Notes: generated by a model not told the origin, from the sequence alone. A stretch of 64,000 bases of DNA from an uncultured Bacilli bacterium (GCA_949451605.1 CASTSB010000002.1:46654-110653); one strand, 5' to 3'; shown: positions 735 to 53,540, counted from the first letter of the stretch. Numbers and translations are program-made.

Positions 735-1862
735 TTAATATGTTCTAATTGGTAAAACTAATTGAGTTAAAGATTCATCTTCTTGAGATTTAATTAAAAT
801 TGGTTTTACTTCTCCAACAAAATGAATATCCACAGTATCTGTTGAAAAACTTTTTAAGGCTTCCATCATATATTTTGCACTAAAAGATATCTTTATTTCT
901 TCTGAATTATTTTTAGTAATATTCATTTTTTCTTCTACTCTACCAATTTCTGCAGAACTACTCTTTAATATTAATGTGTTTCCATTTGTTTCTAATGTTA
1001 CTATATTCTTTTCTTTATCGCTTGTTAAAATACTAACACGATCAATTACATCATAAAAAGCATTTAACGATGTTGTTATTACTAAGAACGAATCATCTGG
1101 TAATAAGTTTGAAGTATTAGGATAAGTTCCATTTATTAATCTTGATTCAAATTTTAAATTACCATTCTTAAATAAAATTTTATTACTAAAGATATGTAAT
1201 TCAATATCTTCTTCTTCATCACTTAGTATTCTAGAAAATTCAATTACATTATGACTAGGAATTACAATATTATAATTTTCTTCACTTGGCCTATCTAATT
1301 TAACAATCTTTCTTGCTAATCTATAAGAATCCGTTGAATTACATTCTAAAATATCCCCTACAATATTAAAATTAATACCAGTAAGTACAGGCTTACTTTC
1401 TTCATTAGATGTAGCAAAAGCTGTTTGATTAATAATATTTTTAAAAGCTCCTGCTTTAATAATAACTTTCTTCTTACTTTCTTCTAATCCTATATTAGGA
1501 TATTCACTTTCACTTATACCATTTAAATTAAATTCACTATTTTCAGTATATATTAATATTTTTAATTCATCTATTACTTCTATATTAATATATTTATCAG
1601 GTAATTTTCTTACTATATCTAAAATGTATTTTCCTTGAATAATTATACTACCTTCATTTTCAACAGTAAAATCTTCATCACTATTAGATTCAATAACTGT
1701 TTGAATAGTAATATCATTATCACTAGCTGTTAATGTTAATCTTTTCTTTTTCAATTCAAATTTTACACCAGCAAGTACTGGTATTAAATTTTTGGTTGAG
1801 ATTGCTTTAGATACTTTATTTAAAGCATCTAATAATAAGTCCTTTTTAATTGTTAATTTCAT
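735..1862 (-). CDS. dnaN: DNA polymerase III beta sliding clamp
   Basis: 375 aa. Immediately downstream of dnaA on the same strand. N-terminus MKLTIxKDLL and overall length are typical of DnaN. Confidence 0.9.
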   Translation of the reverse strand: MKLTIKKDLLLDALNKVSKAISTKNLIPVLAGVKFELKKKRLTLTASDNDITIQTVIESNSDEDFTVENEGSIIIQGKYILDIVRKLPDKYINIEVIDELKILIYTENSEFNLNGISESEYPNIGLEESKKKVIIKAGAFKNIINQTAFATSNEESKPVLTGINFNIVGDILECNSTDSYRLARKIVKLDRPSEENYNIVIPSHNVIEFSRILSDEEEDIELHIFSNKILFKNGNLKFESRLINGTYPNTSNLLPDDSFLVITTSLNAFYDVIDRVSILTSDKEKNIVTLETNGNTLILKSSSAEIGRVEEKMNITKNNSEEIKISFSAKYMMEALKSFSTDTVDIHFVGEVKPILIKSQEDESLTQLVLPIRTY

Positions 1863-1994
1863 AATTATATTCCTTCTTTCTTTAAGATTTTATTATTATT
1901 ACTGTGGAAAAAGTGGATAACTTTCTTTTTCCTAAGTATATCAACAAAAAGTTATCAACATATCCTGTGGAAAAACTGTTATTAACTCATATTT
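1863..1994. promoter_or_regulatory. dnaA-dnaN spacer with DnaA boxes (second oriC module)
   Basis: TGTGGAAAA at 1903-1911 and 1966-1974 (reverse complement TTTTCCACA), AGTGGATAA at 1912-1920, TTATCAACA at 1952-1960. A bipartite oriC flanking dnaA is typical of Firmicutes. Confidence 0.55.
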
Positions 1995-3356
1995 TTACAC
2001 AAGACCTATATCTTTCTTTAGCTTTTCTATTATATTAGCTAAATCTTTATTAACTTTTATTTCATTTTCAATTTTTTCAACTGAATGCATAACTGTTGAA
2101 TGGTCTTTTCCACCAAACTCTATACCAATTCTTGGAAATGATTCCGATGTCATTATTCTACAGAGGTACATTGCAATTTGTCTAGGAAAAGAAATATTAG
2201 AACTTCTCTTTTTACTTCTAATATCTTCAACAGAAATTTGAAAGTATTCAGATACAATTTTTTGTATTCTATGAACATCATTCTTTTCCCCTATTCCTTT
2301 ACTAACTGTGTCTTTTAAAGCCTCAACAGCAAGATCTAAATTAATTTCTGCACTTCCCATCATTGAGGAATAAGCTACAAGTCTTGTTATAGACCCCTCT
2401 AATTGCCTTACATTAGTACCAGTATTAGATGCAATATATTCTATAACATCATCTGGAATGTCTTTTTCTAAGTTTTCAGCAATTATTTTTTTTCTTATTA
2501 TTTGAGATCTTAATTCAAAATCTGGAGGAAAAATATTAACTTCTAATCCCCAAGTAAACCTTGTTCTAAGTCTATCCTCTAATACTTTTAAATCATTTGG
2601 AGATCTATCAGAAGATATAATTATTTGCTTACTATCATTATATAAATTATTAAAAGTATGGAAAAACTCTTGTTGAGTTTTTGTAGCTCCTCCTAAAAAT
2701 TGTATATCATCTATAATCAAAACATCAATGTTTCTATATTTATTTTTAAAGAAGTCTACATAATTAAAATTTGTTTCCAAATCATCTTTTCTATTTGTTT
2801 TTATAAAGTCCTGGATAAATTGTTCACTTGTTACATATAGAACTCTTTTATTAGAATTATTTGTAATATAATTTCCAATTGCATGCATTAAGTGTGTTTT
2901 TCCTAATCCGCTCTCTCCATATAAGAATAATGGATTGTACATATTACCAGGATTTTCAGCAACAGAAAGAGCAGCTGCATGAGCAAATTTATTACTATTA
3001 CCTACTACAAAGTTATCAAATGAATACTGTTTTTTTAAATTAGAATTTATATGTTCATCTTTTACAACTTCTTCTCTTACAAGATTAGTCTCCTCTATTT
3101 CTGTTTCTATCTCCTCATTTAATAGAAAAATAAGTTCACAATTAGATCCAGTAATTTTATTAAGTTTTTCAGAGATTAAATTTTCATAATTATCAATTAA
3201 ATGCTTCTTATGAATTGGCATCGGCACTATTATATAAGCTTTAGAATTATCTATTCTATAAAGTTTTGTTTCAGAAAACCAGGTTTGATAAGCTAAAGAT
3301 GATAATTCATCTTTAATTTCTAATAAGAAATTTGACCAAATTGAATCAAAATTCAT
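1995..3356 (-). CDS. dnaA: chromosomal replication initiator DnaA
   Basis: 453 aa. Walker A GESGLGKTHL, sensor and Walker B regions, and a C-terminal DnaA-box binding domain (FGGKDHSTVMHS). DnaA boxes on both flanks. Confidence 0.95.
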   Translation of the reverse strand: MNFDSIWSNFLLEIKDELSSLAYQTWFSETKLYRIDNSKAYIIVPMPIHKKHLIDNYENLISEKLNKITGSNCELIFLLNEEIETEIEETNLVREEVVKDEHINSNLKKQYSFDNFVVGNSNKFAHAAALSVAENPGNMYNPLFLYGESGLGKTHLMHAIGNYITNNSNKRVLYVTSEQFIQDFIKTNRKDDLETNFNYVDFFKNKYRNIDVLIIDDIQFLGGATKTQQEFFHTFNNLYNDSKQIIISSDRSPNDLKVLEDRLRTRFTWGLEVNIFPPDFELRSQIIRKKIIAENLEKDIPDDVIEYIASNTGTNVRQLEGSITRLVAYSSMMGSAEINLDLAVEALKDTVSKGIGEKNDVHRIQKIVSEYFQISVEDIRSKKRSSNISFPRQIAMYLCRIMTSESFPRIGIEFGGKDHSTVMHSVEKIENEIKVNKDLANIIEKLKKDIGLV

Positions 3357-3782
3357 TGATTATCATCTCCCCTGATTTAAAAATTACGATTACTAGTTTA
3401 ACTTAAAACCTTTAAAAAAGAAACTATTTTTTTGAAAAATTTCAAAAAGTTTTTAAAACTAAATATCTAACTTCAAAATAACTAAAAAAACTAAAAAAAT
3501 CAACAAAAAGTGGGGAAAAAATGTTTAAAACTTTTTCTACAAATTTAGACAAAATTCTATCCACATCTTATCCACAAAATATTCCACAATTAAAATTATT
3601 GAAAAATAAGGCTAAAATATACTTTTCCACATTTTCCACAGATTAAGATTTAACAATGTTAATTATAGTTATTAACAATGCTGTGGAATATGTGGATTAA
3701 TAAATAATTATTTAAAAATTAATTGACAAAAACATATTGTTCTTATTATAATAGGGTAGATTTATGTCTGGAGGTGGAGTAG
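3357..3782. promoter_or_regulatory. oriC: DnaA-box cluster between divergent dnaA and rpmH
   Basis: Perfect TTATCCACA at 3568-3576. Near-consensus boxes: CTATCCACA 3557-3565, TATTCCACA 3580-3588, TTTTCCACA at 3623-3631 and 3632-3640, and inverted TGTGGAATA 3683-3691 / TGTGGATTA 3691-3699. Divergent transcription leaves from here and most genes on each side are co-oriented with replication. Confidence 0.7.
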
Positions 3783-3905
3783 ATGAAAAGAACATATCAA
3801 CCAAACAATCGCAAAAAAGCAAAAAGATTAGGTTTTTTTGCTCGTAAAAAAACAAATATATTAAATCGTCGTCGTCGCAAAGGACGCAAAACTCTTTGTA
3901 AATAA
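3783..3905 (+). CDS. rpmH: 50S ribosomal protein L34
   Basis: Small ORF below the ORF-track size cutoff: MKRTYQPNNRKKAKRLGFFARKKTNILNRRRRKGRKTLCK (40 aa). RBS GGAGGTGGAGTAG upstream. Directly upstream of rnpA. Confidence 0.85.
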   Translation: MKRTYQPNNRKKAKRLGFFARKKTNILNRRRRKGRKTLCK

Positions 3906-3910
3906 AATAC

Positions 3911-3940
3911 CGCTGCTAAAACAGTGGTTTTTTACTCTTT
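3911..3940 (+). terminator. hairpin plus T-tract between rpmH and rnpA (attenuator or partial terminator)
   Basis: CCGCTGctaaaaCAGTGG followed by TTTTTT. The stem has one mismatch. Confidence 0.35.
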
Positions 3941-3969
3941 AAATAATAAAGCAAAAGGGGATATATAAG

Positions 3970-4323
3970 ATGAGAAAGTTATATATAGTAAAAAATAAAC
4001 GAGACTTTGATCAAATAATAAATAATAGTAAGTTTAAAAAAAATAAAAGCTTTATTATTTATTTTCAGTCTAACAAACTAATTTACGATAGATTTGGGAT
4101 ATCAGTAGGTAAGAAATTAGGAAATGCTGTTTTTAGAAACACTTATAAAAGAAAAATTAGATCAATAATTGATAAATATAAAAAAAGCTATGTAAACAGC
4201 CAAGATTATATTATAATATTAAGAAGAAGTGCTCTTGACAAAACTTTTCAAGAATTAGATGAAGACTTCAATAAATTAATGAATAATATAAGAGAGGAAT
4301 CAAATGAAGAAGAAAAACACTAA
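3970..4323 (+). CDS. rnpA: ribonuclease P protein component
   Basis: 117 aa basic protein following rpmH. Has the RNR-like motif region (FGISVGKKLGNAVFRNTYKRKIR). Confidence 0.8.
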   Translation: MRKLYIVKNKRDFDQIINNSKFKKNKSFIIYFQSNKLIYDRFGISVGKKLGNAVFRNTYKRKIRSIIDKYKKSYVNSQDYIIILRRSALDKTFQELDEDFNKLMNNIREESNEEEKH

Positions 4324-13979: not shown

Positions 13980-15575
13980 ATGAAAGATAAAAAGAGATTG
14001 AAATTAAAAAAATTCTATTTTCATCCAATAACTGTATTTTTGTTTGCATCACTTATGGTTATTATACTAAGTGGCATCCTTTCAAGTCTTGAAATACAAG
14101 CAACATATAATGTTATTAATGAAAATACTTATGAATTAGAGCCAACACTTGTTGCAGTAGAAAGTTTATTAAATTATGATGGTATAAAATTTATTATAAG
14201 TAACGCCGCTAAAAACTTTTTGAGTTTTGGTCCTTTAGTAAGTTTAATAATATCATTAATAGGTATATCAGTAGCAGAAGCTTCTGGAATGATTGAAGTA
14301 TTCTCTAAAAAGTATTTGAAGAAAATACCAAAACCAACATTAACATTTTTAATTATTCTACTAGCAACTATTTCATCATTAATAAATGACGTAGGTTATG
14401 CTATATTAATTCCATTAATTGCTCTAATTTACTTCATAATTGAAAGAAATCCAATTTTAGGAATAGTCACAACATTTTGTGGAGTATCATTTGGTTATGG
14501 CATTTCAATATTTGTTGGATCAACAGAAGCTGCTCTAATAGGCTATACAAAAAGCGCTGCTATGTTAATTGATGAAAACATTCATATTGCTTTAACAAGT
14601 AACTTAATATTTATAATTGTTGCTTCAATAATATTATCATTAATAGGAACAATAATTATTGAAAAGATTATTTCACCAAAGATAGGCAAATACAAAAAAG
14701 AAGATGAATTTGCTACTACTGAACAATATCGAGTAATAAATTTAGAGGAAGAAGAACAAAAACAAATAGAAAAAGAAAAATACGAAAAAAGAGGTTTAAG
14801 ATTTTCTTTAATTATTGCTTTAATCGTATTATTTATATTTGTATATTCTTTAATACCAAATTTACCTTTCTCAGGAATGTTATTAGATATGTCTGAAAAT
14901 ACATATTTGAATCAATTATTCGGGAAAAATTCATATTTTCAAGATGGATTTACTTATATGATTGCAATATTCTTTGTTCTTGTAGGAATTGCTTACGGAA
15001 TAGGATCAAAATCACTTAAAAGTGATAAAGACTTAATTGAAAAAATAAATCATAATTTTTCTACAATAGGAAGTTCAATACTTTTAATGTTTGTAGTATC
15101 CCAATTTATAGCAATTTTTAAGCAAACTAATATTGGAATCATTATAGCTTCTTGGTTAGCAAACATCTTGAATAATTTAAATATAAGTGGAATTCCATTA
15201 ATTATAGTTACTTTAATTTTCATTGCACTTGCAAACTTTACTTTAACTGGATCTGCAAATAAATGGTTAATTTTTTCTCCAGTAGTAGTACCTATGTTTA
15301 TGCAATCAAACATTTCTCCACAATTTGCTCAAATAGTTATGCGAGCTGGAGACTCTATGACTAATGGATACACACCGATACTTGCATCATTTGTAATATA
15401 TATTGCTTATTTAAATATTTACAATTTAAATAAAGCAAAACCTTATTCAATAAAAAAATCCTTAAATTTAATAACTCCATACTTTATTTTAATATCAATA
15501 ACATGGATTTTATTAGTAGTAGGATGGTATATTATTGGATTACCAATAGGTCCAGGAGTTTATCCGACATTATAA
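13980..15575 (+). CDS. polytopic membrane transporter (AbgT/YfcC-like, uncertain family)
   Basis: 531 aa with about 12 predicted hydrophobic segments. No family-diagnostic motif recognised. Confidence 0.4.
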   Translation: MKDKKRLKLKKFYFHPITVFLFASLMVIILSGILSSLEIQATYNVINENTYELEPTLVAVESLLNYDGIKFIISNAAKNFLSFGPLVSLIISLIGISVAEASGMIEVFSKKYLKKIPKPTLTFLIILLATISSLINDVGYAILIPLIALIYFIIERNPILGIVTTFCGVSFGYGISIFVGSTEAALIGYTKSAAMLIDENIHIALTSNLIFIIVASIILSLIGTIIIEKIISPKIGKYKKEDEFATTEQYRVINLEEEEQKQIEKEKYEKRGLRFSLIIALIVLFIFVYSLIPNLPFSGMLLDMSENTYLNQLFGKNSYFQDGFTYMIAIFFVLVGIAYGIGSKSLKSDKDLIEKINHNFSTIGSSILLMFVVSQFIAIFKQTNIGIIIASWLANILNNLNISGIPLIIVTLIFIALANFTLTGSANKWLIFSPVVVPMFMQSNISPQFAQIVMRAGDSMTNGYTPILASFVIYIAYLNIYNLNKAKPYSIKKSLNLITPYFILISITWILLVVGWYIIGLPIGPGVYPTL

Positions 15576-39437: not shown

Positions 39438-39561
39438 TCACATTATGAATAATATTAAAATTAAAATCTATCAAAAAAACTAGACAATTAGAGAAATTCT
39501 TGTTATACTAATAACGCATTTAATTACTATGACTTAATGTCATGGCGGAAGGAGTGAAAGA

Positions 39562-44044: not shown

Positions 44045-46534
44045 ATGAAATTTTTAAGAAAATTATTTGATCATGAATATAAAGAATTAAAAAGGTTCGA
44101 AATATTAGCTAATAAAATCATGGATTTAGATGAAGAATATTCTAAATTGACTGATACAGAATTACAAAACAAAACTGAAGAATTTAAAGAACGTCTACAA
44201 AAAGGTGAAACTTTAGATGATATCTTGGTTGAAGCATTTGCTACAGCTCGTGAAGCTTCTTTCCGTGTTATAGGAGAAAAACATTACTTTGTCCAAATAC
44301 TAGGTGGACTTGCAATTCATTTTGGAAATATTGCTGAAATGAAAACAGGTGAAGGAAAAACTTTAACCAGTGTATTACCAGCATACCTAAATGCTCTATC
44401 AGGAGAAGGAGTTCATATTATTACTGTAAATGAATACCTAGCTGGAAGAGATGCTGAATGGATGGGTGGAATTCATAGATTCTTAGGCCTTACAGTTGGT
44501 GTTAATGGAAGAGATTTAACTCCTACAGAAAAACAAGAGGCTTATAATTGCGATATATTATATTCAACAAATAATGAAATTGGTTTTGATTATTTAAGAG
44601 ATAACATGGTTGTTAGAAAAGAGGAAAGAGTTCAAAGAAGATTAAATTTTGCCATAATCGATGAAGTGGATTCTGTTCTAATAGATGAAGCAAGAACTCC
44701 TTTAATTATTTCTGGTGGAGAAATGAAAGCAGCTAATTTATATATTGATGCTGACAAATTTGCTAAAAGTTTAAAAGAAGAAAAAGACTTTATTTATGAT
44801 GAAAAAACAAAAAGTGTTAATTTAACTGAATCTGGATCTGATAAAGCAGAAAAAATGTTTCATATAAACAATTTATATGATATTGAAAATGCAACTTTAT
44901 TACACTTTGTAAATCAAGCATTAAAAGCTAATTATTCAATGAGAAATGATGTTGATTACGTAGTTCAAGATGGAGAAGTAGTAATAGTAGATCAATTTAC
45001 TGGTCGTCTACAAAAAGGACGTGCTTATTCTGATGGTCTTCATCAAGCAATTGAAGCAAAAGAAGGCGTACAAATTAATCAAGAAACAAAAACCCTAGCA
45101 ACTATTACTTTCCAAAATCTATTTAGAATGTATAAAAAATTATCTGGAATGACTGGTACAGCTAAAACAGAAGAAGAAGAATTTAGAAACATCTATAATA
45201 TGTATGTAATTGAAATCCCAACAAATAAAGAAGTTATAAGAATTGATGCACCAGATCTTGTATATGCAACTAAAGAGGCCAAATATAAAGCAATTGTTGA
45301 ATTTGTAAAAGATAAATATGAACATGGTCAACCTGTATTAATTGGTACAATCGCAATAGAAAGTAGTGAATTAATAAGTAATCTATTAAAACAAGCTCAT
45401 ATTCCACATGAAATATTAAATGCTAAAAATCATGCGCGTGAAGCAGAAATTATTTCAAAAATTGGACAAAATAAATCTGTAACTATCGCTACAAATATGG
45501 CAGGTCGTGGTACTGATATTAAACTATCAGATGAAATAAAAAAACTAGGAGGTCTATGTGTTGTAGGTACAGAACGTCATGAATCACGCCGTATCGATAA
45601 CCAATTACGTGGACGTTCAGGTCGTCAAGGAGATCCTGGTTATACTCAATTCTTTGTTTCTATGAAAGATGATCTTATGGTTAGATTTGGTTCAGATAGA
45701 ATCGGCGATATGATGAAAAACTTAGGACTTGGAGATCAAGCAATCCAAAGTAAAACATTTACAAATTCTATTGGAACAGCTCAAAAAAGAGTTGAGGGAA
45801 ACAATTTTGATATAAGAAAATCTTTACTTCAATATGATGATGTTATGAATAATCAAAGAGAAATAATTTATGAAAAAAGAAATAAAATTTTAGATAATGA
45901 TAGTATTTATTCAATGGTTACCAATACATTTAGAAATCATATAGAAGATTTAGTAAAATCTCACTTAGCACCAGAAGATTATTTAACTGACAGTGATTTA
46001 GAAGAAATAACTGAATTTGCCAATGAGAATTTACTAAAAAAAGATATAAAAATATCAGAAATAAAAGATTTATCACCAGAAGAAATTATTGATAAATTAT
46101 CAAAACAGTTAATAACAGAATATGAAGATAAAATAAAAGATGTACCAAAAGAAATTTCTAATGAATTTGAAAAAGTAATTACACTACAAGTACTTGATAA
46201 TTACTGGATGGAGCATATAAATACTATGTCACACTTAAGAGAAGGAATTCATTTAAGAGGTTATGCTCAAGAAGATCCATTAAGAGCATATACAATGGAA
46301 GGTTTTGAACTTTTTGATTCAATGCTTCAAAAAGTTGATAAAGATATTTGTATATTCTTATCAAAAGCAGAAATAAGACAAAATATAGAAAGAAAAGAAA
46401 CAACAAAAAAACAAATAACTAATGATACTGAATCAAGAGATACAAAAAAAACAAAGAAGAGCAAAAAAATTGGTAGAAATGAACCATGTCCTTGTGGAAG
46501 TGGAAAGAAATATAAGCAATGTTGCGGAAAGTAG
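44045..46534 (+). CDS. secA: preprotein translocase ATPase SecA
   Basis: 829 aa. DEAD-like motor motifs. C-terminal zinc finger CPCGSGKKYKQCCG. Confidence 0.95.
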   Translation: MKFLRKLFDHEYKELKRFEILANKIMDLDEEYSKLTDTELQNKTEEFKERLQKGETLDDILVEAFATAREASFRVIGEKHYFVQILGGLAIHFGNIAEMKTGEGKTLTSVLPAYLNALSGEGVHIITVNEYLAGRDAEWMGGIHRFLGLTVGVNGRDLTPTEKQEAYNCDILYSTNNEIGFDYLRDNMVVRKEERVQRRLNFAIIDEVDSVLIDEARTPLIISGGEMKAANLYIDADKFAKSLKEEKDFIYDEKTKSVNLTESGSDKAEKMFHINNLYDIENATLLHFVNQALKANYSMRNDVDYVVQDGEVVIVDQFTGRLQKGRAYSDGLHQAIEAKEGVQINQETKTLATITFQNLFRMYKKLSGMTGTAKTEEEEFRNIYNMYVIEIPTNKEVIRIDAPDLVYATKEAKYKAIVEFVKDKYEHGQPVLIGTIAIESSELISNLLKQAHIPHEILNAKNHAREAEIISKIGQNKSVTIATNMAGRGTDIKLSDEIKKLGGLCVVGTERHESRRIDNQLRGRSGRQGDPGYTQFFVSMKDDLMVRFGSDRIGDMMKNLGLGDQAIQSKTFTNSIGTAQKRVEGNNFDIRKSLLQYDDVMNNQREIIYEKRNKILDNDSIYSMVTNTFRNHIEDLVKSHLAPEDYLTDSDLEEITEFANENLLKKDIKISEIKDLSPEEIIDKLSKQLITEYEDKIKDVPKEISNEFEKVITLQVLDNYWMEHINTMSHLREGIHLRGYAQEDPLRAYTMEGFELFDSMLQKVDKDICIFLSKAEIRQNIERKETTKKQITNDTESRDTKKTKKSKKIGRNEPCPCGSGKKYKQCCGK

Positions 46535-46537
46535 ATT

Positions 46538-46565
46538 AAAGCCCATTTATAAGGGCTTTTCTTAT
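46538..46565 (+). terminator. rho-independent terminator after secA
   Basis: AAAGCCCatttataAGGGCTTTT. Confidence 0.65.
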
Positions 46566-46606
46566 AAACAAATTTATTAAAATGGCAAGGGAATTTTAGT
46601 TTTTAA

Positions 46607-46894
46607 TTGTCATTAATAATTTATGATATAATTAAAATATTAATAATTACTTTTGCCATAGGAGGTATATTTTATACAATAAAAATAAGTAATAGATATA
46701 ATAAAGATACCTCAACTAAAGAAGTTATAATTAGCCTTTTTAAGGAACATAATGCAATAGATTTAGAAAGTGGTATTAAAATTAAAGATTTACCTAATAA
46801 CATTTCAAAAAGCCTATATCTATTAATGATGGTTAAAGATAATACTCTTATTTTTAAGAAAGGTAAATATTATTTAAATGAAAAACTTAAGTAA
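46607..46894 (+). CDS. hypothetical small protein with N-terminal TM helix (island gene 1)
   Basis: 95 aa from a TTG start. No RBS confidently identified. Overlaps the next ORF by 17 nt. Confidence 0.3.
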   Translation: MSLIIYDIIKILIITFAIGGIFYTIKISNRYNKDTSTKEVIISLFKEHNAIDLESGIKIKDLPNNISKSLYLLMMVKDNTLIFKKGKYYLNEKLK

Positions 46895-47108
46895 ATATAA
46901 AAAATTATGGGAATATTTAGAAGCTAATAAAGAATTAGAATATAATCTATCTTTTGATGATATAAAAAATATTATTGGTTTCAATATTGATCATTCATTT
47001 TTATCTTATAAAAAAGAAGCCGAAATATATGGTTATAAAGTAAAAAAAATATCATTAAAAGAAAAAATGATAGTTTTTGAAAAAAACAAGAAATTAGGAG
47101 ATATATGA
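46878..47108 (+). CDS. hypothetical small protein (island gene 2)
   Basis: 76 aa. Overlaps both flanking ORFs, consistent with an operon. Confidence 0.3.
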   Translation: MKNLSKYKKLWEYLEANKELEYNLSFDDIKNIIGFNIDHSFLSYKKEAEIYGYKVKKISLKEKMIVFEKNKKLGDI

Positions 47109-47740
47109 AAAATAAAATTAGTGAAATAGGAGCCATATCCATGGCTTTATTGTATAGAAAGAAATATGCTGATTCAGAAATGATTAAATTGTCTTCAGCA
47201 AAAAAATTCAAAGAAACTATTGAAAGTAATTTACAAAGCATGCATAGTGAGTATAGTTGGTGCACAAATTATAAAGAAGAAAATGATTTATATTTTATAT
47301 GTAGAGATGAAAATAATATCTTATATGCAATTATTGACCCTTCAGCAAATATTCAAAGAGCCACAGAACATTATATTTACTGTTTGCCTACAGATATAAT
47401 TCAGGCTTCATTAATGAATAATGTCTTAGAAATTATTGGCTTAAAAGAAGAAAATAATAAGATTGTAGAAATAAGGGATGAAAAACTAGACAATGAATTA
47501 GAAAAAGTAATAAATCTAAATATAAAAGATCCTAATAATTTTTATAAGGAAGTTTTCTATAGTTTAAGCTTAGAGGAAAGAGATTTCTTAAAACAACAAT
47601 TTACTAATAAAAGCTGTTTCAATTGTATTAATGGTCTATGCAAATTACCATATAAAGAAAAAGGTGATAAAGGTTGCTGTATTGATTGGCAAAATCCATC
47701 AGAATTAGGTAAGAAATATATATTAAAAAAGAAAAGTTAA
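47105..47740 (+). CDS. hypothetical protein with C-terminal Cys-cluster (island gene 3)
   Basis: 211 aa. C-terminus CFNCINGLCKLPYKEKGDKGCCIDW suggests a metal-binding knuckle. Confidence 0.35.
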   Translation: MKNKISEIGAISMALLYRKKYADSEMIKLSSAKKFKETIESNLQSMHSEYSWCTNYKEENDLYFICRDENNILYAIIDPSANIQRATEHYIYCLPTDIIQASLMNNVLEIIGLKEENNKIVEIRDEKLDNELEKVINLNIKDPNNFYKEVFYSLSLEERDFLKQQFTNKSCFNCINGLCKLPYKEKGDKGCCIDWQNPSELGKKYILKKKS

Positions 47741-47770
47741 GAACATTATATGTTCTTTTATTTTTTTCTT
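47739..47770 (+). terminator. rho-independent terminator after island gene 3
   Basis: AAGAACATtatATGTTCTT followed by TTATTTTTTT. Confidence 0.55.
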
Positions 47771-47774
47771 AACA

Positions 47775-47788
47775 AGAACAAATGTTCG
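47775..47788 (+). promoter_or_regulatory. LexA (Cheo/SOS) box overlapping promoter of radical-SAM operon
   Basis: AGAACAAATGTTCG gives a perfect GAAC-N4-GTTC core, matching the Bacillus consensus CGAACATATGTTCG at 12 of 14 positions. It lies immediately upstream of TATAAT (47792-47797) and 26 nt before the ATG at 47814. Confidence 0.6.
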
Positions 47789-47813
47789 TGTTATAATTGA
47801 ATTGGTGATAACT

Positions 47814-49019
47814 ATGGATTTAAAAGAAAAACTAATTATATTAGCTGATAGCGCAAAATATGATGCCTCATGTTCATCCAGTGGCAGTTCAAGAAAAGAA
47901 GGTAAACTAGGCAATACAGCAGTGGCAGGTATATGCCATTCATTTGCTGCAGATGGTAGATGTATTTCTCTTCTAAAAATATTATTAACAAATTGTTGCA
48001 TTTACGATTGCAAATATTGTCCAAATAGACGAACTAATAATATTAAAAGAGCAACATTTACTAAAGAAGAAATATGTGAAATTACTATTAATTTTTATAG
48101 AAGAAATTACATAGAAGGACTTTTTATTTCTTCTGGTATTATAAAAAATCCTGATTACACAATGAATCTTATGATAGAAGCAATCTCGTTATTAAGAAGT
48201 AAATATCATTTTGGTGGATATATACATGCAAAAGCTATTCCCGGAGCAAGTGAGTATCTTTTGAAAAAACTAGGTAATCTTGTTGATAGATTAAGTGCCA
48301 ATGTAGAACTACCAACTGATGAAGGGTTAAAACTATTAGCTCCTAATAAAGATAATAGAAAAGTAGATAAAATAATGGATTATGTTCATAAAAACAGAAC
48401 AAATAAATTTGTCCCAGCAGGACAAAGCACCCAGATGATTATAGGAGCAACAAAGGAGACGGACTTAGAAATAATGTCAAAAAGCTCTACTATGTATAAT
48501 AAACATGAATTAAAAAGAGTTTTTTATTCTGCTTATATTCCTGTAAATAAAGATAAACTTTTACCAACGCTCCAAACGCCACCACTATTAAGAGAAAATA
48601 GACTATACCAAGCAGACTGGCTATTAAGATATTATAATTTTAAAGTTGAAGATATTTTAGATGAGAAAAATCCAAATTTTAATCTTTTACTAGATCCGAA
48701 GGCCTCTTGGGCTTTAAAACATTTAAATGAATTTCCAAAAGAGATAAATAGCTGTTCATTTAATGATCTTTTAAAAATACCAGGTATAGGAGTTACTTCT
48801 GCGAAAAGAATAATTTCTTCACGAAAATATTTTAAAATTACATTTAATGATTTGAAGAAAATGGGGATTGTTTTAAAAAGGGCAAAGTATTTTATCACAT
48901 GTAATAATAAGTATTTTACAGATAGCACATTCTTTAATAAAAATATTATAGAAAGAAATTTAATATTAGAAGACAAAGTAAAAAAAGAATCTAATATTGA
49001 ACAATTAGCTTTATTTTAA
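47814..49019 (+). CDS. putative DNA modification/repair radical SAM protein with HhH (TIGR03916-like)
   Basis: CIYDCKYC cluster (CxxxCxxC). C-terminal helix-hairpin-helix LLKIPGIGVTSAKRII. Start at the ATG after RBS GGTGAT; the track ORF begins 12 nt upstream. Confidence 0.7.
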   Translation: MDLKEKLIILADSAKYDASCSSSGSSRKEGKLGNTAVAGICHSFAADGRCISLLKILLTNCCIYDCKYCPNRRTNNIKRATFTKEEICEITINFYRRNYIEGLFISSGIIKNPDYTMNLMIEAISLLRSKYHFGGYIHAKAIPGASEYLLKKLGNLVDRLSANVELPTDEGLKLLAPNKDNRKVDKIMDYVHKNRTNKFVPAGQSTQMIIGATKETDLEIMSKSSTMYNKHELKRVFYSAYIPVNKDKLLPTLQTPPLLRENRLYQADWLLRYYNFKVEDILDEKNPNFNLLLDPKASWALKHLNEFPKEINSCSFNDLLKIPGIGVTSAKRIISSRKYFKITFNDLKKMGIVLKRAKYFITCNNKYFTDSTFFNKNIIERNLILEDKVKKESNIEQLALF

Positions 49020-49786
49020 TGAAAAAAAGTAATTATATTTATCTATATGATAATGATTTTATATCTCTATTAAGTCTGATAAAAATACTTATAACGAAGA
49101 AAGTAATTCCATGTAATATAAAACCTAATACATATACTCCTTCACTTTTTGAAGAGACATTTAAAGAACAAATATCCGAAAATGAAATCATTATAAAAGA
49201 AATAATAGATGCGACTTCATTCTATATTCTTAACACAATGTATAAAATATTTCTATCTGAGCACAATGATAAAGAGATAATAATCTACTACTTTTTTGTT
49301 CATGCCTTAAAATATCAAAATAAAATTTATTATATGCGTAATTTAAAAAGTGTTACTGAGGCATTAAAAATTGAAAAATTTGTAGAACATGAAACACATA
49401 AATTTAAAGGATTTCTTAGGTTTAAGGAATTAAAAGGTGGAATTTTGTATGCCACTATAGAACCGGATAATAACATAATTCTTTTCCTTTCTAAACATTT
49501 TAAACAAAGACTCCAAAATGAATTTTGGATTATAGAAGATAAAAAAAGACAATTAATAAGCATATATGATAAAAATAATTTTTATATTACTTCTTCAGAA
49601 TGCTTCAATATTTTAGATAAAGAGTTATCAGAAGCTGAAGAAGATATAGAAAACTTATGGAAAAACTTTTACAAAACAATTGCAATAAAAGAAAGAACTA
49701 ATTATAGATGTCGTATGAATTTTATGCCAAAAAAATACTGGAAATATATTATAGAAATGAGTGATAAAAATGAAAATAGTTATTAG
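49019..49786 (+). CDS. TIGR03915/DUF4130-like putative DNA metabolism protein (partner of the radical SAM protein)
   Basis: N-terminus IYLYDNDFISLLSLI...PSLFEE matches my recollection of the family N-terminus (IYxYDGxFEGLLTxIF...QxSLF). Translationally coupled (TAATG) to the upstream gene. Confidence 0.55.
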   Translation: MKKSNYIYLYDNDFISLLSLIKILITKKVIPCNIKPNTYTPSLFEETFKEQISENEIIIKEIIDATSFYILNTMYKIFLSEHNDKEIIIYYFFVHALKYQNKIYYMRNLKSVTEALKIEKFVEHETHKFKGFLRFKELKGGILYATIEPDNNIILFLSKHFKQRLQNEFWIIEDKKRQLISIYDKNNFYITSSECFNILDKELSEAEEDIENLWKNFYKTIAIKERTNYRCRMNFMPKKYWKYIIEMSDKNENSY

Positions 49787-51320
49787 TGGTCAAGAACTAC
49801 AAGAAAAGATGACTTTTGCAGTTAATTTATTATGTAATACAGTAAAAAGTACCATTGGACCCAAGGGAAGCAATATTATAATAGATCATTCTGCCTTTAG
49901 TCCTTTTATTACAAATGATGGAGTAACAATAGCACAAAATATAGAAAGTGAAGATCAAATTACCAATACCATTTTGGAATTAGCAAAAGAAGCTTCAATA
50001 AAGACTAATTATTTGGTAGGAGATGGTACAACCACAACATTAGTTTTACTACAAGTAATTTTCAATGAAGGATTAAAAGAAATAAATAATGGAAAAAATC
50101 CTATTATTTTAAAAAAAGAGCTTGAAGAAAGTTTATCAAAAATAATAATAAAAATAAAAGAAGAAAGTAAAAAATCTACACTCAAAGATTTAGAAAATAT
50201 TGCTTTGACGTCTTCTAGTTCTAAAGAAATAGCCAAAATAATTACAGAAGCTTTTAAAATAACTAAAAATAAAGAGTCAATTAAGATTATAGAACAAGAA
50301 AATAATTCCATTAACTTAATTTATAAAAAAGGATATTCAATAGATACACTATTAGCTTCTCCTTATTTTCTGGCAGATAAAAAAGAGATATCAGAAGAAA
50401 ATTTATCTGTTATATTGATTAATAATTATATTCAAGAAATAGAAGAAATTTCAATTTATTTAAGTGATGCTATTACAAATAAAAAATCTTTAATAGTTTT
50501 AGCAGAGGATTATTCTGAATTGGTAATAAATGAAGTTTTATCAATAAACGAATATAGTAATAATAAAATATACTTGCTTAAAATACCAGAATATGGAAAA
50601 AACAAATATGATTTGTTAAAAGATTTAGAACTAATAACAAAAGCTAAAATAATAAACGATTTAGCAAATATAAGTTTTGAAAATTTAGGATTAATAGAAA
50701 ATATAAAAATTGATTGTTCACAAAGCACATTTTATTTTAATGAAAATAATAAAATTAATGAAAAAATAAAAGAGCTTAAGTCTCTTTTTGATAATACTGA
50801 AGAATATAATGAATATTTAGCCAAAAGAATATCAATGTTAGAAACAGGTATTATTGAAATTCTTATTGGAGCACCAACTATTACAGAAAGAAGAGAAAAG
50901 AAAATGAGAGCAGATGATTGCTTATGTGCAATTAACTCTGCAAAAGATGGTTTTGTTACTGGTAGTGGATTAACTTTGTATAAAATTTCAGATAGTTTTC
51001 AAAAAGAAAATCAATCAATTTCTAATATTTTACTAAAAGCACTACAAGAGCCTTTTAAAGAGATAATGTTTAATTCAGGTCTAGATTATAAAGAAATTAT
51101 TTCAGAAATCAAATTATCCAATTATCAAAAAGTTTATAATGTTATAAGCGAGAAATTCGAAAATATAGCTAGTTCAACTGTTAAGGATCCTACAAAAGTA
51201 GTAATTGACTCATTAATTAATGCAACTTCAATAGCTAGTATTTTATTAACAACCACTTCCTTAATAGTTAATGAATACAAAAATAATACCAATAAAATAA
51301 ATGACTTCAATGATTTATAA
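49761..51320 (+). CDS. highly divergent orphan chaperonin Cpn60/GroEL paralog (no GroES partner)
   Basis: Collinear with GroEL by eye: GPKGSNIIIDHSAFSPFITNDGVTIAQNIESEDQ ([34 protein letters not shown]), GDGTTTTLVL (GDGTTTATVL), SPYFLADKKEISE, LIVLAEDYS, ERREKKMRADDCLCAINSAKDGFVTGSGLTL ([32 protein letters not shown]). Lacks the GGM tail. Overlaps the upstream gene. Confidence 0.7.
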   Translation: MIKMKIVISGQELQEKMTFAVNLLCNTVKSTIGPKGSNIIIDHSAFSPFITNDGVTIAQNIESEDQITNTILELAKEASIKTNYLVGDGTTTTLVLLQVIFNEGLKEINNGKNPIILKKELEESLSKIIIKIKEESKKSTLKDLENIALTSSSSKEIAKIITEAFKITKNKESIKIIEQENNSINLIYKKGYSIDTLLASPYFLADKKEISEENLSVILINNYIQEIEEISIYLSDAITNKKSLIVLAEDYSELVINEVLSINEYSNNKIYLLKIPEYGKNKYDLLKDLELITKAKIINDLANISFENLGLIENIKIDCSQSTFYFNENNKINEKIKELKSLFDNTEEYNEYLAKRISMLETGIIEILIGAPTITERREKKMRADDCLCAINSAKDGFVTGSGLTLYKISDSFQKENQSISNILLKALQEPFKEIMFNSGLDYKEIISEIKLSNYQKVYNVISEKFENIASSTVKDPTKVVIDSLINATSIASILLTTTSLIVNEYKNNTNKINDFNDL

Positions 51321-51364
51321 TTATTGTATAATATAATAAAAGTAGTGATTAAAGGAGAATAATT

Positions 51365-52213
51365 ATGGCTGTAGAAGTTACAATAAAGAATAAAAGTTTA
51401 TTTAAAAGAAAATTAAATATAAAAGATTTAATATTAGATGGTATACGTTATGGAATAATGGATGAAGCTTTTAGATTAGAAGAAAATAAAATTGGTGAAA
51501 ATACTGTTTTATTTGATAAGCAACATGTTTGTAGAGGATTTGAAGTATCTTTGAATAATAATGAAATCTTTCTAAGAATGCCTCTTCCAACATCTACCAA
51601 AGATATAGAATTTTTTTACAACTATATTACTAAAATTTGTAAAAAACTTAATACAAAAAAATTTATAAGAGAAAATGAAACAGTATTTATCGATCAAATA
51701 GAAGAATTTATCAACTTTGATATTGAAACTAGTAAAAATGCTTTAAAACAAATGCAAACAAAAATAGAATCAGAAGAAATGAATAATATGTACTTGTTCG
51801 GAGCAGTAAATCCAATTTGCTTAGGAAAAGAAGAAATAGAAAAGATAAACAATAGTCCAAGAAACCTTGGAGAATTACTTAATAGTATTCAAACCAAAGA
51901 TGTATATTACGCAAAGCCAAGTATCTATCAAAAAAAAGATGAATCATTTTTTGGAGTTTTTGTATTAACATCAGATGTTCCAACAGTATTACCATATATA
52001 CCTAAACTTATAATGCCTAATAAAGAAATAAAGGTAAATAATTGGTATTTATGTTTCGTTGTAAAAGATCAAATGTTAGGGCAAATAGCCTATGATGATT
52101 TTACTTCTAATTTAAAAGATGAAGATTCTTATGATAGTGAACATTTTGTAATTAATCTAAATGAAAAGATTATAAAAGATTATTTAGAAAAATATAGAAC
52201 AGAAATAGACTAA
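51365..52213 (+). CDS. hypothetical protein, last gene of SOS-box operon
   Basis: 282 aa. RBS AAAGGAGAATAATT before the ATG. No recognisable motif. Confidence 0.35.
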   Translation: MAVEVTIKNKSLFKRKLNIKDLILDGIRYGIMDEAFRLEENKIGENTVLFDKQHVCRGFEVSLNNNEIFLRMPLPTSTKDIEFFYNYITKICKKLNTKKFIRENETVFIDQIEEFINFDIETSKNALKQMQTKIESEEMNNMYLFGAVNPICLGKEEIEKINNSPRNLGELLNSIQTKDVYYAKPSIYQKKDESFFGVFVLTSDVPTVLPYIPKLIMPNKEIKVNNWYLCFVVKDQMLGQIAYDDFTSNLKDEDSYDSEHFVINLNEKIIKDYLEKYRTEID

Positions 52214-52230
52214 TAATTAGTCTATTTTTG
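52205..52230 (+). terminator. terminator at end of island operon
   Basis: ATAGACTAATaATTAGTCTAT palindrome overlapping the stop codon, followed by TTTTTG. Confidence 0.45.
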
Positions 52231-52444
52231 TATAAAAAAAGAACCCCCTGAATAGGAGCTCCATCTATTTACAGAGGATCTTCACACTACATAGTGAACC
52301 TTCCTCATTTATAATATATGTAAAAACATAAAAAATATACACAATAAAATTTTCCAAACTTTCAAATTGTAAAAATTTATGCTATTCTTAAATTAAATAG
52401 TATTTTAAAAACTAAAAGAGCAATAATAATATAAGGAGAAAATA

Positions 52445-53540
52445 ATGGAAAAAAAAGATTTAGAAAAAATAATTAATTATAATATTGAAACGATAAATAG
52501 TTTATGGAGGTCACTTTGACATAGATTCCAAAAAACAAAAAGTAAAAGATTTAGAACAAATTACTGCAAACCAAAATTTTTGGAATAATAGGTTAGAAGC
52601 CGAAAAAGTTTTAAAAGAAATTACAGAGTTAAAAAACATTATTAATCAAGTTTCTGACTTAAAAATAAAATTAATTGATAATAAAGATTTTTTAGAAATA
52701 ATTGATGAAAAAGATGTAGAATTATTTTCTCAATTAGAAAAAACAATTAATGAAGATAATAAGATAGTAGAAGACTTGAATTTGCTATTACTTTTAAGCG
52801 GACCTTATGACAAAAACGACTGTATTTTAGAAATTCATTCGGGAGCTGGTGGAACTGAAGCTTGTGATTGGGCAAATATGATATATAGAATGTATCAAAG
52901 ATGGTGTGAAAAGAAAAAATATAAAATTGAAATTCTAGATTATCAAACTGGTGAAGAAGCTGGAATTAAAAGTGTGTCATTAAAAATAAAAGGTTTAAAT
53001 GCCTATGGATATTTAAAAAATGAGAAAGGTGTACATAGATTAGTTCGATTATCTCCTTTTGATTCAAATAATAGAAGACATACTTCATTTGCATCTGTAG
53101 AAGTAACACCAGACATAGAAGTTGATAATTCTATAGAAATAGATGAAAAAGACTTAAAAATCGATGTATATAGATCTACAGGAGCTGGAGGACAAGGAGT
53201 AAATACAACAGATTCAGCAGTAAGAGTTACCCATTTGCCTACTAAAATAGTTGTTACATGTCAAAATGAAAGAAGTCAAATTCAAAATAAAGAGCAAGCA
53301 ATAAAAGTATTAAAAAGTAAATTATTAGTAAAAAAACTTGAAGAGCAAGCAAAAGAAATAAATGCTATAAAGGGTGAACAAATGAATATTGAATTTGGCT
53401 CTCAAATAAGAAGTTATGTAATGCATCCTTATTCTTTAGTAAAAGACCACAGAACTAATGAAGAAACAAGCGATGTATTCAAAGTTTTAGATGGTGAGAT
53501 AGATAAATTTATTGAAAGTAATTTAAAGAAAGGGTTATAA
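52445..53540 (+). CDS. prfB: peptide chain release factor 2 (programmed +1 frameshift)
   Basis: Upstream frame MEKKDLEKIINYNIETINSLWRSL ends at CTT TGA C. The +1 frame continues DIDSKKQKVKDLEQITANQNFWNN...LLLLSGPYDKNDCILEIHSGAGGTEACDW and includes the GGQ motif, collinear with B. subtilis RF2. The track ORF 52776..53540 is the downstream part. The start coordinate is uncertain by 1 nt because of my counting across homopolymer runs. Confidence 0.85.
52514..52520 (+). promoter_or_regulatory. prfB autoregulatory +1 frameshift site CTT TGA C with upstream SD-like GGAGG
   Basis: TGGAGGTCACTTTGAC shows the canonical RF2 recoding signal: internal Shine-Dalgarno, CUU-UGA-C slippery stop with a C after the stop. 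Confidence 0.8.

Follow-up and report, generated by a model that had tools for sequence, protein, structure and literature searches.

As judged from conserved gene order and overlapping reading frames, the third gene of a radical-SAM "DNA repair" operon in a lineage of low-GC gut Firmicutes encodes a diverged chaperonin and is translationally coupled to the gene before it. In the stretch of DNA analysed here (64 kb in full, referred to as the window), gene 3 of this operon is a diverged group I (Cpn60/GroEL-like) chaperonin gene at 49770..51320 on the + strand. Its open reading frame, counted from a GTG, spans 49761..51320 (519 aa) on the same strand; the likely start is the ATG at 49770, which yields a protein of 516 aa and is used in gene calls on 99%-identical contigs (P0001).

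A sequence-only reading of the same DNA had described the protein as collinear with GroEL through the equatorial motifs, and profile and structure searches bore this out. Pfam PF00118 (Cpn60_TCP1) matched residues 26-503 with E = 4e-44 (151.6 bits versus a cutoff of 34.3), the top PDB sequence match was Thermus Cpn60 (E = 5e-68), and the motifs IGPKGSN, ITNDGVTIA and VGDGTTTT were all found. The NCBIfam GroEL models aligned with the protein from end to end, yet six out of six stayed under their cutoffs, the best being NF009487 (329 bits versus 352), with the equivalog TIGR02348 at 296 bits versus 582; identity to E. coli GroEL was 30% over 528 columns. The AF2 model had a pLDDT of 90, and in Foldseek comparisons it gave TM values of 0.83-0.87 to GroES-bound GroEL/Hsp60 subunits, the top matches being all group I. 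Models of group II chaperonins (thermosome/CCT) produced only partial N-terminal matches, of 30-61 bits versus cutoffs of 400-800. We note that the protein is shorter than GroEL and has no apical insertion, and so has no built-in lid of the group II kind. By alignment and predicted fold, 49770-51320 is thus a full-length group I chaperonin homologue, genuine but very diverged. Similarity due to low-complexity sequence was ruled out because the alignments run end to end and the fold is confident, and a pseudogene or decaying copy was rejected in view of a dN/dS of 0.07-0.25 and of catalytic residues that do not vary.

The dN/dS values show that the gene is under purifying selection, and an alignment of 40 family sequences shows the equatorial ring-building elements and the residues for ATP binding and hydrolysis to be intact. 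The phosphate-binding loop GDGTTTT (50019..50039, + strand; E. coli G86-T91 region) carries invariant or nearly invariant equivalents of D87 and T89-T91, as do the positions corresponding to T30, G32, P33, D52, G88, D398, G414, G416, I454, N479 and D495, with S at the G415 position in most sequences. The catalytic Asp, whose conservation had been proposed as a check, corresponds to D383 here (E. coli D398; 50916..50918, + strand) and is invariant in 40/40 sequences. Some of the best conserved segments are the elements that make up the inter-subunit sheet, namely the N- and C-terminal strands and the stem-loop. Conservation across the family does not extend to the residues of the inter-ring contacts; R197 and E386, the classical allosteric salt-bridge residues, have been lost, and conservation is lowest in the apical domain, where two of the eight classical substrate-/GroES-binding residues are now small or polar (L234 to A/S and V264 to S/A).

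The family therefore resembles canonical GroEL in its three-domain fold, its end-to-end collinearity, its ATP-site residues including the catalytic Asp and, as read here from sequence, the stem-loop and terminal strands of the heptameric ring. The ITNDGVTI motif (K51 to N) is common to the chaperonin and to Firmicutes GroEL, which suggests descent from a Firmicutes groEL. Unlike canonical GroEL, the family has no groES, CIRCE element or GGM tail, does not conserve R197/E386 or the inter-ring contacts, has a strongly diverged apical domain, and is part of a repair operon that carries a Cheo-like operator. The earlier statement that the protein is more diverged than GroEL ever is holds in part: the family shares 25-40% identity with canonical GroELs from Firmicutes, Actinobacteria and E. 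coli, versus at least 56% among these, but the wording is too strong because fast-evolving, GroES-linked GroELs lacking GGM repeats occur in low-GC Firmicutes (P0180, P0186). P0180 shares about 49% identity with Peptoniphilaceae GroEL, and the chaperonin is clearly further out than GroELs of this type.

Gene 1 of the operon (47814..49019, + strand) encodes a TIGR03916 radical-SAM protein (610 bits versus a cutoff of 343.5; Pfam Radical_SAM and HHH) of 401 aa by the gene call on 99%-identical contigs; in the list of open reading frames it begins at TTG 47802, a position within the ribosome-binding site. Gene 2 (49019..49786, + strand) encodes a putative DNA repair protein of 255 aa of the DUF4130/TIGR03915 family (DUF4130, E = 8.6e-45; TIGR03915, 205 bits versus 112), in which no UDG domain was found. 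The stop of gene 1 and the start of gene 2 have one base in common, and the start codon of the chaperonin gene is located 17 nt inside the 3' end of gene 2, in agreement with the translational linkage to DNA-repair-type genes claimed previously. These overlaps, together with those at related loci (1-23 nt where frames of the triad overlap, and a gap of at most 9 nt at the radical-SAM/DUF4130 junction), show the radical-SAM, DUF4130 and chaperonin genes to be arranged as one operon whose frames overlap or nearly abut.

Directly 3' of the chaperonin gene, with no terminator between, is a DUF4299 gene (51365..52213, + strand; Pfam DUF4299, E = 8e-22) that is probably co-transcribed with the triad in the window species and lies outside the conserved module, being found downstream of the triad only in that species (L001-L004) and missing among the annotated downstream genes of L005, L088, L091 and L111. 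The window triad is positioned between secA and prfB, near the replication origin and with housekeeping genes around it. We also observed an extra AraC/GyrI-like gene in L001 that is not present in L002, although the contigs are 99%-identical.

The chaperonin had been called an orphan, a description that does not stand: it has fixed partners and forms part of a large clade, which comprises at least 67 representative clusters at 50% identity. In a neighbour-joining (NJ) tree of Cpn60-like sequences, a comparison suggested earlier, all radical-SAM-linked sequences were placed in one clade of 67 representatives (bootstrap 74/100) that leaves out every GroES-linked sequence. A DUF4130/TIGR03915 gene is located directly 5' of the chaperonin gene in 17/17 clade loci examined (the window, L005, L008, L009, L010, L034, L088, L090, L091, L096, L098, L099, L100/L102, L101, L111 and L109/L110), and the TIGR03916 gene is found upstream wherever the locus sequence reaches far enough. 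In each of the seven junctions read, the end of the DUF4130 frame and the beginning of the chaperonin frame overlap by 4-23 nt. At the examined loci the chaperonin is about 32-65% identical to that of the window, and the genes around the triad vary between loci with annotated flanks. A metagenome scan with a family-specific C-terminal alignment yielded seven loci, and the triad was present in all six that were informative. Over 12 loci, the pairwise distances of the three genes correlate with r = 0.84-0.91, the chaperonin being the fastest-evolving member (mean p-distance of 0.59 versus 0.29 for the radical-SAM gene).

The operon is preceded by the best sigma-70-type promoter match in 46400-52900 (11/12 positions, with TG), consisting of a -35 element TTAACA (47769-47774), a 17-nt spacer and a TG-extended -10 element TATAAT (47792-47797; promoter 47769..47797, + strand). 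Its spacer carries a Cheo-box-like (LexA-type) palindromic putative operator, AGAACAAATGTTCG (47775..47788, + strand), with a perfect GAAC-N4-GTTC. GAACN4GTTC occurs twice in the 64 kb, versus 0.15 expected, and the operator is the only intergenic copy. A related palindrome, CAAACAAAYGTTTG, precedes the radical-SAM start by approximately 45 nt in nine of 14 family loci, against a background of 0.073 per kb; with the near-identical operons of L005 and L008 counted once, these nine reduce to eight upstream regions, and in most loci the palindrome is only Cheo-like (AAAC-N4-GTTT). Binding of LexA to the operator is a prediction from the motif; neither lexA nor recA, which would have tied the motif to LexA, was found in any locus searched, and the motif was not found upstream of the window uvrB.

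A CIRCE element, with up to three mismatches allowed, was found in none of 11 triad loci scanned (the window and 10 others). Of eight GroES-linked loci scanned, seven carried it 5' of groES, namely the canonical L011, L013, L039 and L040 and the GGM-less L093, L103 and L104; it was not found in L094. The absence of groES noted previously was confirmed by tblastn with E. coli and B. subtilis GroES, which returned no match in the 64-kb window, nor was a groES found in the 23 family loci searched (L001-L010, L034, L088-L092, L096-L102), whereas it is upstream in 74 of 76 canonical groEL loci.

These data bear on the possibility that the chaperonin is simply the genome's sole, fast-evolving housekeeping groEL, which would have lost groES during genome reduction and come to neighbour repair genes by chance. 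Fast-evolving GGM-less GroELs such as P0180 and P0186 do occur in low-GC, small-genome Firmicutes, groESL has been lost in some Mollicutes, and our search for a canonical groESL, which found none, covered the 64-kb window and the flanks of family loci. A scan of genome collections returned mostly canonical GroELs from other species, and among relatives of P0180 no single contig carried both groESL and the triad, L103 and L104 having groESL without the triad. A chance neighbourhood, however, would not persist through 17/17 loci with differing flanks and with chaperonin identities down to about 32%, and CIRCE marks even three of four fast-evolving GGM-less groESL loci, whereas the chaperonin family has neither groES nor CIRCE and carries a Cheo-like operator instead. 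A repressed, SOS-type promoter would also be odd for an essential housekeeping gene. Moreover, the window organism encodes MreB, a class A PBP and MurA and so belongs to the walled Firmicutes, in which, to our knowledge, groESL is nearly universal. We thus regard this explanation as very unlikely and note that, even as the only copy, the chaperonin would be specialised by its context. As a separate observation, L093 (groES-groEL-amidase/LysM-SleB) shares synteny with the first part of L091 (amidase-SleB-triad), the latter being a truncated contig.

In agreement with the earlier reading, the protein ends in ...SLIVNEYKNNTNKINDFNDL, with no GGM repeats. In their place is a family-specific tail, NEYKNNTNKINDFNDL (51270..51317, + strand), which is predicted to be disordered, residues 505-516 having pLDDT < 50. 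N501 and E502 are invariant in a 36-sequence alignment (A1), and the family consensus reads ...INE, followed by 10-14 residues and a final [DE][LIFM]; when counted from the tails, the last residue is hydrophobic in nearly all 67 clade members and is most often preceded by D or E. The missing GGM repeats alone are not decisive, since some GroES-linked GroELs also lack them.

Phage chaperonins are GroEL-like ATPases that need no co-chaperonin, have no GGM tail and serve few clients. The present family is similar to them, for instance to gp146 of Pseudomonas phage EL (PDB 6tmt), in lacking both an adjacent groES and a GGM tail. It could accordingly be asked whether the gene derives from a mobile element or phage and travels on a repair cassette that moves horizontally, serving the element and not the host. 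The triad does occur in differing chromosomal contexts, the window stretch differs between L001 and L002, and P0242, which the NJ tree places next to the clade as its sister, is a stand-alone Cpn60 encoded between SSB and HU genes; this placement is weak, however (37/100). Unlike phage chaperonins, the family is chromosomal, its match to 6tmt has E = 4e-17 as compared to 5e-68 for cellular GroEL, and BFVD phage chaperonins share 17-26% identity with it. None of 50 GroEL-like loci in IMG/VR belonged to the family (identity of at most 32%) or carried a radical-SAM or DUF4130 gene, and no integrase or transposase was found among the annotated neighbours of the triads in L005, L088, L091 and L111 or among the window neighbours scanned. 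A mobile origin is, in our judgement, highly improbable.

Cellular genomes also carry diverged extra chaperonins, including Chlamydia GroEL2/GroEL3, mycobacterial GroEL1, Myxococcus GroEL2 and the rhizobial groESL copies co-regulated with nif/nod, which are thought to have narrow client sets and often show no adjacent groES and altered C-termini. The chaperonin is comparable to such stand-alone or specialised paralogues in being diverged, in having no adjacent groES and in its altered C-terminus. It falls outside the chlamydial variants, whose models NF038370 and NF038369 gave 88.8 and 74.5 bits versus cutoffs of 600. Stand-alone groEL genes are frequent, a groEL without a neighbouring groES being counted in 770 of 4,861 genomes (PMC5406781; review, PMC5904260). 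No GroEL paralogue known to us or described in the literature searched has a fixed, translationally coupled third position behind a radical-SAM/DUF4130 pair or is controlled from an SOS-type operator.

Genes 1 and 2 clearly belong to the TIGR03916/TIGR03915 pair, both being above their cutoffs and adjacent, as the family definition requires. The described system consists of two genes, with DUF4130 often fused to UDG, whereas here there is no UDG fusion and a chaperonin is added. The pair is damage-regulated elsewhere (PMC4951493, PMC12392091), in Acinetobacter as a DdaA-dependent damage-response gene (PMC12392091). A complex of the radical-SAM and DUF4130 proteins that acts on nucleic acid has been predicted, and DUF4130 is assigned a RecJ/DHH-like fold (bioRxiv 10.64898/2026.08.19.745780). 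The literature searched contained no description of a chaperonin partner of DUF4130/TIGR03915/TIGR03916 or of this chaperonin family.

The conserved three-gene operon, the SOS-type operator in the place of CIRCE and the fast-evolving apical domain indicate a specialised role, as had been suggested. The reading that we favour, and to which we give roughly even chances, is that the protein could be a specialised, GroES-independent group I chaperonin-like ATPase serving the radical-SAM/DUF4130 pair. DNA damage would derepress the operator, the three proteins would be made together and in fixed proportion, and the chaperonin ring would spend ATP on folding, holding or assembling the Fe-S radical-SAM/DUF4130 complex; the conserved acidic-hydrophobic C-terminal tails would reach into the cavity, where they may help to recruit the client. 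Service to one client set instead of the proteome would explain the drifted apical domain and the loss of allosteric and inter-ring contacts, would make GroES and the GGM tail dispensable, and would account for a chaperonin that evolves faster than its client. Partial TIM-barrel enzymes are typical GroEL clients. There is also an analogy with the SOS response of E. coli, where unstable damage-induced proteins need a chaperonin: GroE was reportedly found by Donnelly and Walker in 1989 to be required for UmuDC-dependent SOS mutagenesis, and Petit et al. in 1994 and Layton and Foster in 2005 are said to have described the GroE dependence of SOS translesion proteins (UmuC, DinB). The chaperonin is there the general housekeeping GroESL, whereas here a dedicated chaperonin gene would sit inside the damage-inducible operon itself.

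Several points count against a dedicated client. Operon membership shows co-expression, not clientship; the variability of the apical domain might argue the other way, as a fixed client bound there would be expected to conserve the surface; and a closed cage normally needs a lid, for which we see no candidate. The TIGR03916/TIGR03915 pair is reported by the TIGRFAM description to occur in about 20% of prokaryotic genomes, and most carriers have no such chaperonin.

Part of the same evidence could be read differently, with the chaperonin as an integral, stoichiometric ATPase subunit of a repair or modification machine, forming a platform or cage for the oxygen-sensitive radical-SAM/DUF4130 complex or a gate to DNA. 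The chaperonin frames overlap at every junction read and those of radical-SAM and DUF4130 overlap or nearly abut, which suggests fixed stoichiometry; the three genes are co-inherited, as the distance correlations given above indicate; the conserved, disordered acidic-hydrophobic tail resembles a docking peptide; and R197, E386 and the inter-ring contacts are lost while the apical substrate groove is partly kept. On the other hand, the obvious interaction surface, the apical domain, is what varies most, the pair works without a chaperonin in most lineages, and we know of no precedent for a group I chaperonin as a subunit of a catalytic complex. No fusions of Cpn60 with a DUF4130 or radical-SAM protein were found, the long matches being tandem GroELs, a tagged construct and unrelated extensions. 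We consider an integral subunit unlikely. A bolder version, about as unlikely, is that the GroES-less ring may be a working part of an SOS-type DNA repair or modification machine, its tails capturing the radical-SAM/DUF4130 complex and ATP activating, protecting or cycling the oxygen-labile enzyme on damaged DNA; the chaperonin would then belong to a repair pathway and not be a general folding helper. The seven tails recall the C-terminal tip of SSB, a docking site for RecJ-like and UDG proteins, and DUF4130 is RecJ/DHH-like in fold.

The common picture of chaperonins is one of GroES-paired, heat-induced generalists, and the clade described here departs from it as a whole, being hard-wired by overlapping frames and a Cheo-like operator to a widespread, uncharacterised damage-response pair. 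Its members carried no source-supplied name in the protein collection searched, and the label "chaperonin GroEL" on them would mislead metabolic analyses as well as marker-gene analyses based on the cpn60 barcode. If the chaperonin is dedicated to the pair, as in the reading that we favour, it would provide a natural one-client system for defining the minimal needs of the GroEL machine, co-expression of gene 3 would offer a route to soluble TIGR03916/TIGR03915 enzymes, and the family would give a new handle on the role of this repair system in abundant uncultured gut Firmicutes.

The open reading frame at 49761-51320 (plus strand) was confirmed as real, and its start codon is likely ATG 49770, yielding a protein of 516 aa. 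Gene calling on metagenome contigs of 99% identity gave the same start (protein P0001), which sits 17 nt within the 3' end of the DUF4130/TIGR03915 gene ahead of it. The product is homologous to group I chaperonins from end to end: it matches Pfam Cpn60_TCP1 (E = 4e-44), its top PDB sequence match is Thermus Cpn60 (E = 5e-68), it shares 30% identity with E. coli GroEL, and the NCBIfam GroEL models each align over ~500 residues, all under their cutoffs (296 bits versus 582 for TIGR02348). The AlphaFold2 model, for which an alignment of 36 family sequences served as input, has high confidence (pLDDT 90) and resembles GroES-bound-type GroEL/Hsp60 subunits (TM 0.83-0.87), group II and phage chaperonins being far poorer matches. 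The GroEL homology proposed in the sequence-only reading is thus borne out, as is the absence of GGM repeats and of groES, which was found nowhere in the 64-kb window. When tested for membership, the protein was placed with neither housekeeping GroEL, chlamydial GroEL2/3, group II chaperonins nor phage chaperonins.

The chaperonin gene (49770-51320) is the last of a plus-strand operon of three, after genes for a TIGR03916 radical-SAM protein (47814-49019) and the DUF4130/TIGR03915 protein (49019-49786). The linkage to DNA-repair-type genes noted earlier is strict, since this order recurs in every inspectable locus of the family of radical-SAM-linked Cpn60-like sequences (L005, L008, L009, L010, L034, L088, L090, L091, L096, L098-L102 and L111; the operons of L005 and L008 are nearly identical), with chaperonins down to ~32% identical to the window protein. 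The DUF4130 and chaperonin frames overlap by 4-23 nt at all seven junctions read, and at loci L109 and L110 the DUF4130 C-terminus is still encoded in the 50 nt upstream of the chaperonin; genes flanking the triad vary among loci with annotated flanks. In a prospective test, both further clade members (P0167, P0262) had DUF4130 upstream and their nearest non-member, P0242, did not; groES lies upstream in 74 of 76 canonical groEL loci. The TIGR03916 and TIGR03915 proteins are predicted to join in a radical-SAM complex directed at nucleic acid (bioRxiv 10.64898/2026.08.19.745780; PMC3765255), and the literature searched contained no paper tying a chaperonin to DUF4130, TIGR03915 or TIGR03916. 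About 3 kb downstream of the L005 triad, at 14264-14971, a weak UDG-family gene precedes an HD-domain gene; the former is of note since many other lineages fuse DUF4130 to a UDG domain.

Although it had been described as an orphan, the protein has many relatives. A search of 5.8 billion proteins returned >120 related clusters (46-65% identity), all of 500-520 aa and all unnamed, and a profile-based search across 1.84 billion representatives gave ~57 clusters (50% identity) well above canonical GroEL scores, followed by a continuum. In a neighbour-joining tree of 158 sequences, all known radical-SAM-linked sequences fell in a single clade of 67 representatives (bootstrap 74/100), with GroES-linked sequences all outside it. 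Mutual identity among canonical GroELs of several phyla is 56% or more, whereas the family is only 25-40% identical to them, which upholds the high divergence first reported. The named genomes matched are MAGs of 'uncultured Bacilli bacterium' from the guts of rabbits and Hadza people, and all family loci have a GC content of 23-30%. One triad (L034, CAYNFP010000005.1) lies on a 25% GC contig of a MAG whose label, Muribaculaceae (Bacteroidota), is suggested by composition and gene content to stem from a binning error. No family member was found in IMG/VR, which speaks against a chaperonin carried by a mobile element, a very improbable origin in our estimation.

P0242 (L108, 2069-3634), placed with weak support as sister to the radical-SAM-linked clade, is a stand-alone Cpn60 whose neighbours are SSB, HU and an HTH_26 regulator, and the locus resembles a piece of a mobile element or prophage; the tail of P0242 (...IVNE...FL) is similar to that of the family. 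P0177 and P0179 (~1080 aa, high-GC) each consist of two complete GroEL-like units joined in tandem on one polypeptide. GroEL copies that stand alone or are specialised are well known (PMC5406781, PMC5904260).

Across 12 loci, pairwise distances of the three triad genes correlate (r = 0.84-0.91), indicating inheritance as a unit. Of the three, the chaperonin evolves fastest (mean p-distance 0.59; DUF4130 0.52, radical-SAM gene 0.29), a reversal for GroEL, which is usually among the slow-evolving proteins; its dN/dS of 0.07-0.25 indicates purifying selection.

The region's best promoter match (-35 TTAACA, 17-nt spacer, TG-extended -10 TATAAT) lies directly upstream of the radical-SAM gene, and its spacer carries a perfect palindrome of the LexA-type Cheo class, AGAACAAATGTTCG. 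GAAC-N4-GTTC occurs twice in the 64 kb versus 0.15 expected, the operon-promoter copy being the only intergenic one. Nine of the 14 family loci have a related palindrome, consensus CAAACAAAYGTTTG, ~45 nt ahead of the radical-SAM start, versus a background rate of 0.073 per kb; with L005 and L008 near-identical, these nine amount to 8 distinct upstream regions. The palindrome is degenerate in four further loci, and none is present there in L010. Neither lexA nor recA was found in any of the loci examined, and the uvrB gene of the window has no Cheo-like motif. The TIGR03916/TIGR03915 operon is a LexA regulon member in Verrucomicrobia (PMC4951493) and belongs to a DdaA-regulated DNA-damage gene set in Acinetobacter (PMC12392091); the triad operon may be induced by DNA damage through LexA.

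CIRCE, the HrcA heat-shock operator, is lost together with groES: it was found neither in the window nor in 10 other triad loci scanned, and lies upstream of groES in 7/8 GroES-linked loci scanned, including 3/4 fast-evolving GGM-less ones. This regulatory switch, like the conserved linkage to the radical-SAM and DUF4130 genes, argues against the protein being the sole, drifting housekeeping GroEL of its genome, as does the retention of groES, and mostly of CIRCE, by fast-evolving GroES-linked GroELs; we consider that explanation improbable. The window encodes MreB, a class A PBP and MurA and contains an L31-Firmicutes ribosomal-protein leader (39527-39554, its only Rfam match at gathering score), which marks the organism as a walled Firmicute that therefore likely has a second, canonical groESL operon; the diverged chaperonin would in that case be a paralog, as the sequence-only reading proposed. 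In the GroES-linked, GGM-less locus L093, groES-groEL-amidase/LysM-SleB (2345-4229) is syntenic with L091 (1-1636), where amidase/LysM-SleB directly precede the triad (52-63% protein identity); canonical operon and triad may thus lie within ~5 kb of each other in some lineages.

The surrounding sequence includes the chromosomal replication origin, with dnaN and dnaA on the minus strand (735-3356), yidC, mnmE, mnmG, parB and dnaB on the plus strand (4304-24321) and a GC-skew sign change near 4 kb. A search of the 64 kb for tRNA genes found none. Three small ORFs (95, 76 and 211 aa; 46607-47740) with no convincing family match lie between secA and the operon, and after them comes a hairpin terminator, AAGAACATTATATGTTCTT with a T-run (47739-47766). 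Here the two loci at 99% identity to the window, L001 and L002, differ by an AraC/GyrI-like gene present only in L001, so the secA-prfB interval looks like a variable insertion spot. Further on, prfB (52446-53540) has the programmed +1 frameshift site in its classical form (CTT TGA C, near 52505-52515), indicating that TGA is a stop and that genetic code 11 is used, not the Mycoplasma code. Between DUF4299 and prfB, a minus-strand element (52215-52345; MFE -30.9 kcal/mol, z = -2.7) that ends in a G+C-rich hairpin and T-run is a possible small RNA; it matches no Rfam family, and no gene lies near it on that strand.

The catalytic site of the chaperonin is intact: T30, G32, P33, D52, D87-T91, D398 (the catalytic Asp, which was to be checked), G414, G416, I454, N479 and D495 (E. 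coli GroEL numbering) are invariant or near-invariant in 40 family sequences, with mostly Ser at G415. The K51-to-N change (ITNDGVTI), common to the family and Firmicutes GroEL, hints at a Firmicutes origin. The stem-loop and terminal strands that join subunits into a ring are among the best-conserved segments, and the subunits would assemble into such a ring; conservation does not extend to the R197/E386 allosteric salt bridge or to the residues at inter-ring contacts. Divergence is greatest in the apical domain, whose family consensus is 27% identical to the canonical one versus 44-45% for the other two domains; six of eight classical substrate-/GroES-binding positions remain hydrophobic, with L234 and V264 replaced by Ala or Ser. 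In place of GGM, the family has a conserved tail, predicted to be disordered (...L[IV]INE and 10-14 further residues, usually with [DE][LIFM] at the end), which could have a role in recruitment.

An integral ATPase subunit of a repair machine is one possible identity, though a rather unlikely one, and it shades into the reading that we prefer, with about as much doubt as confidence: a GroES-independent chaperonin-like ATPase dedicated to two co-encoded damage-response proteins. The radical-SAM/DUF4130 pair would then be its clients. The E. coli SOS proteins UmuC and DinB depend on GroE, which offers a functional precedent.
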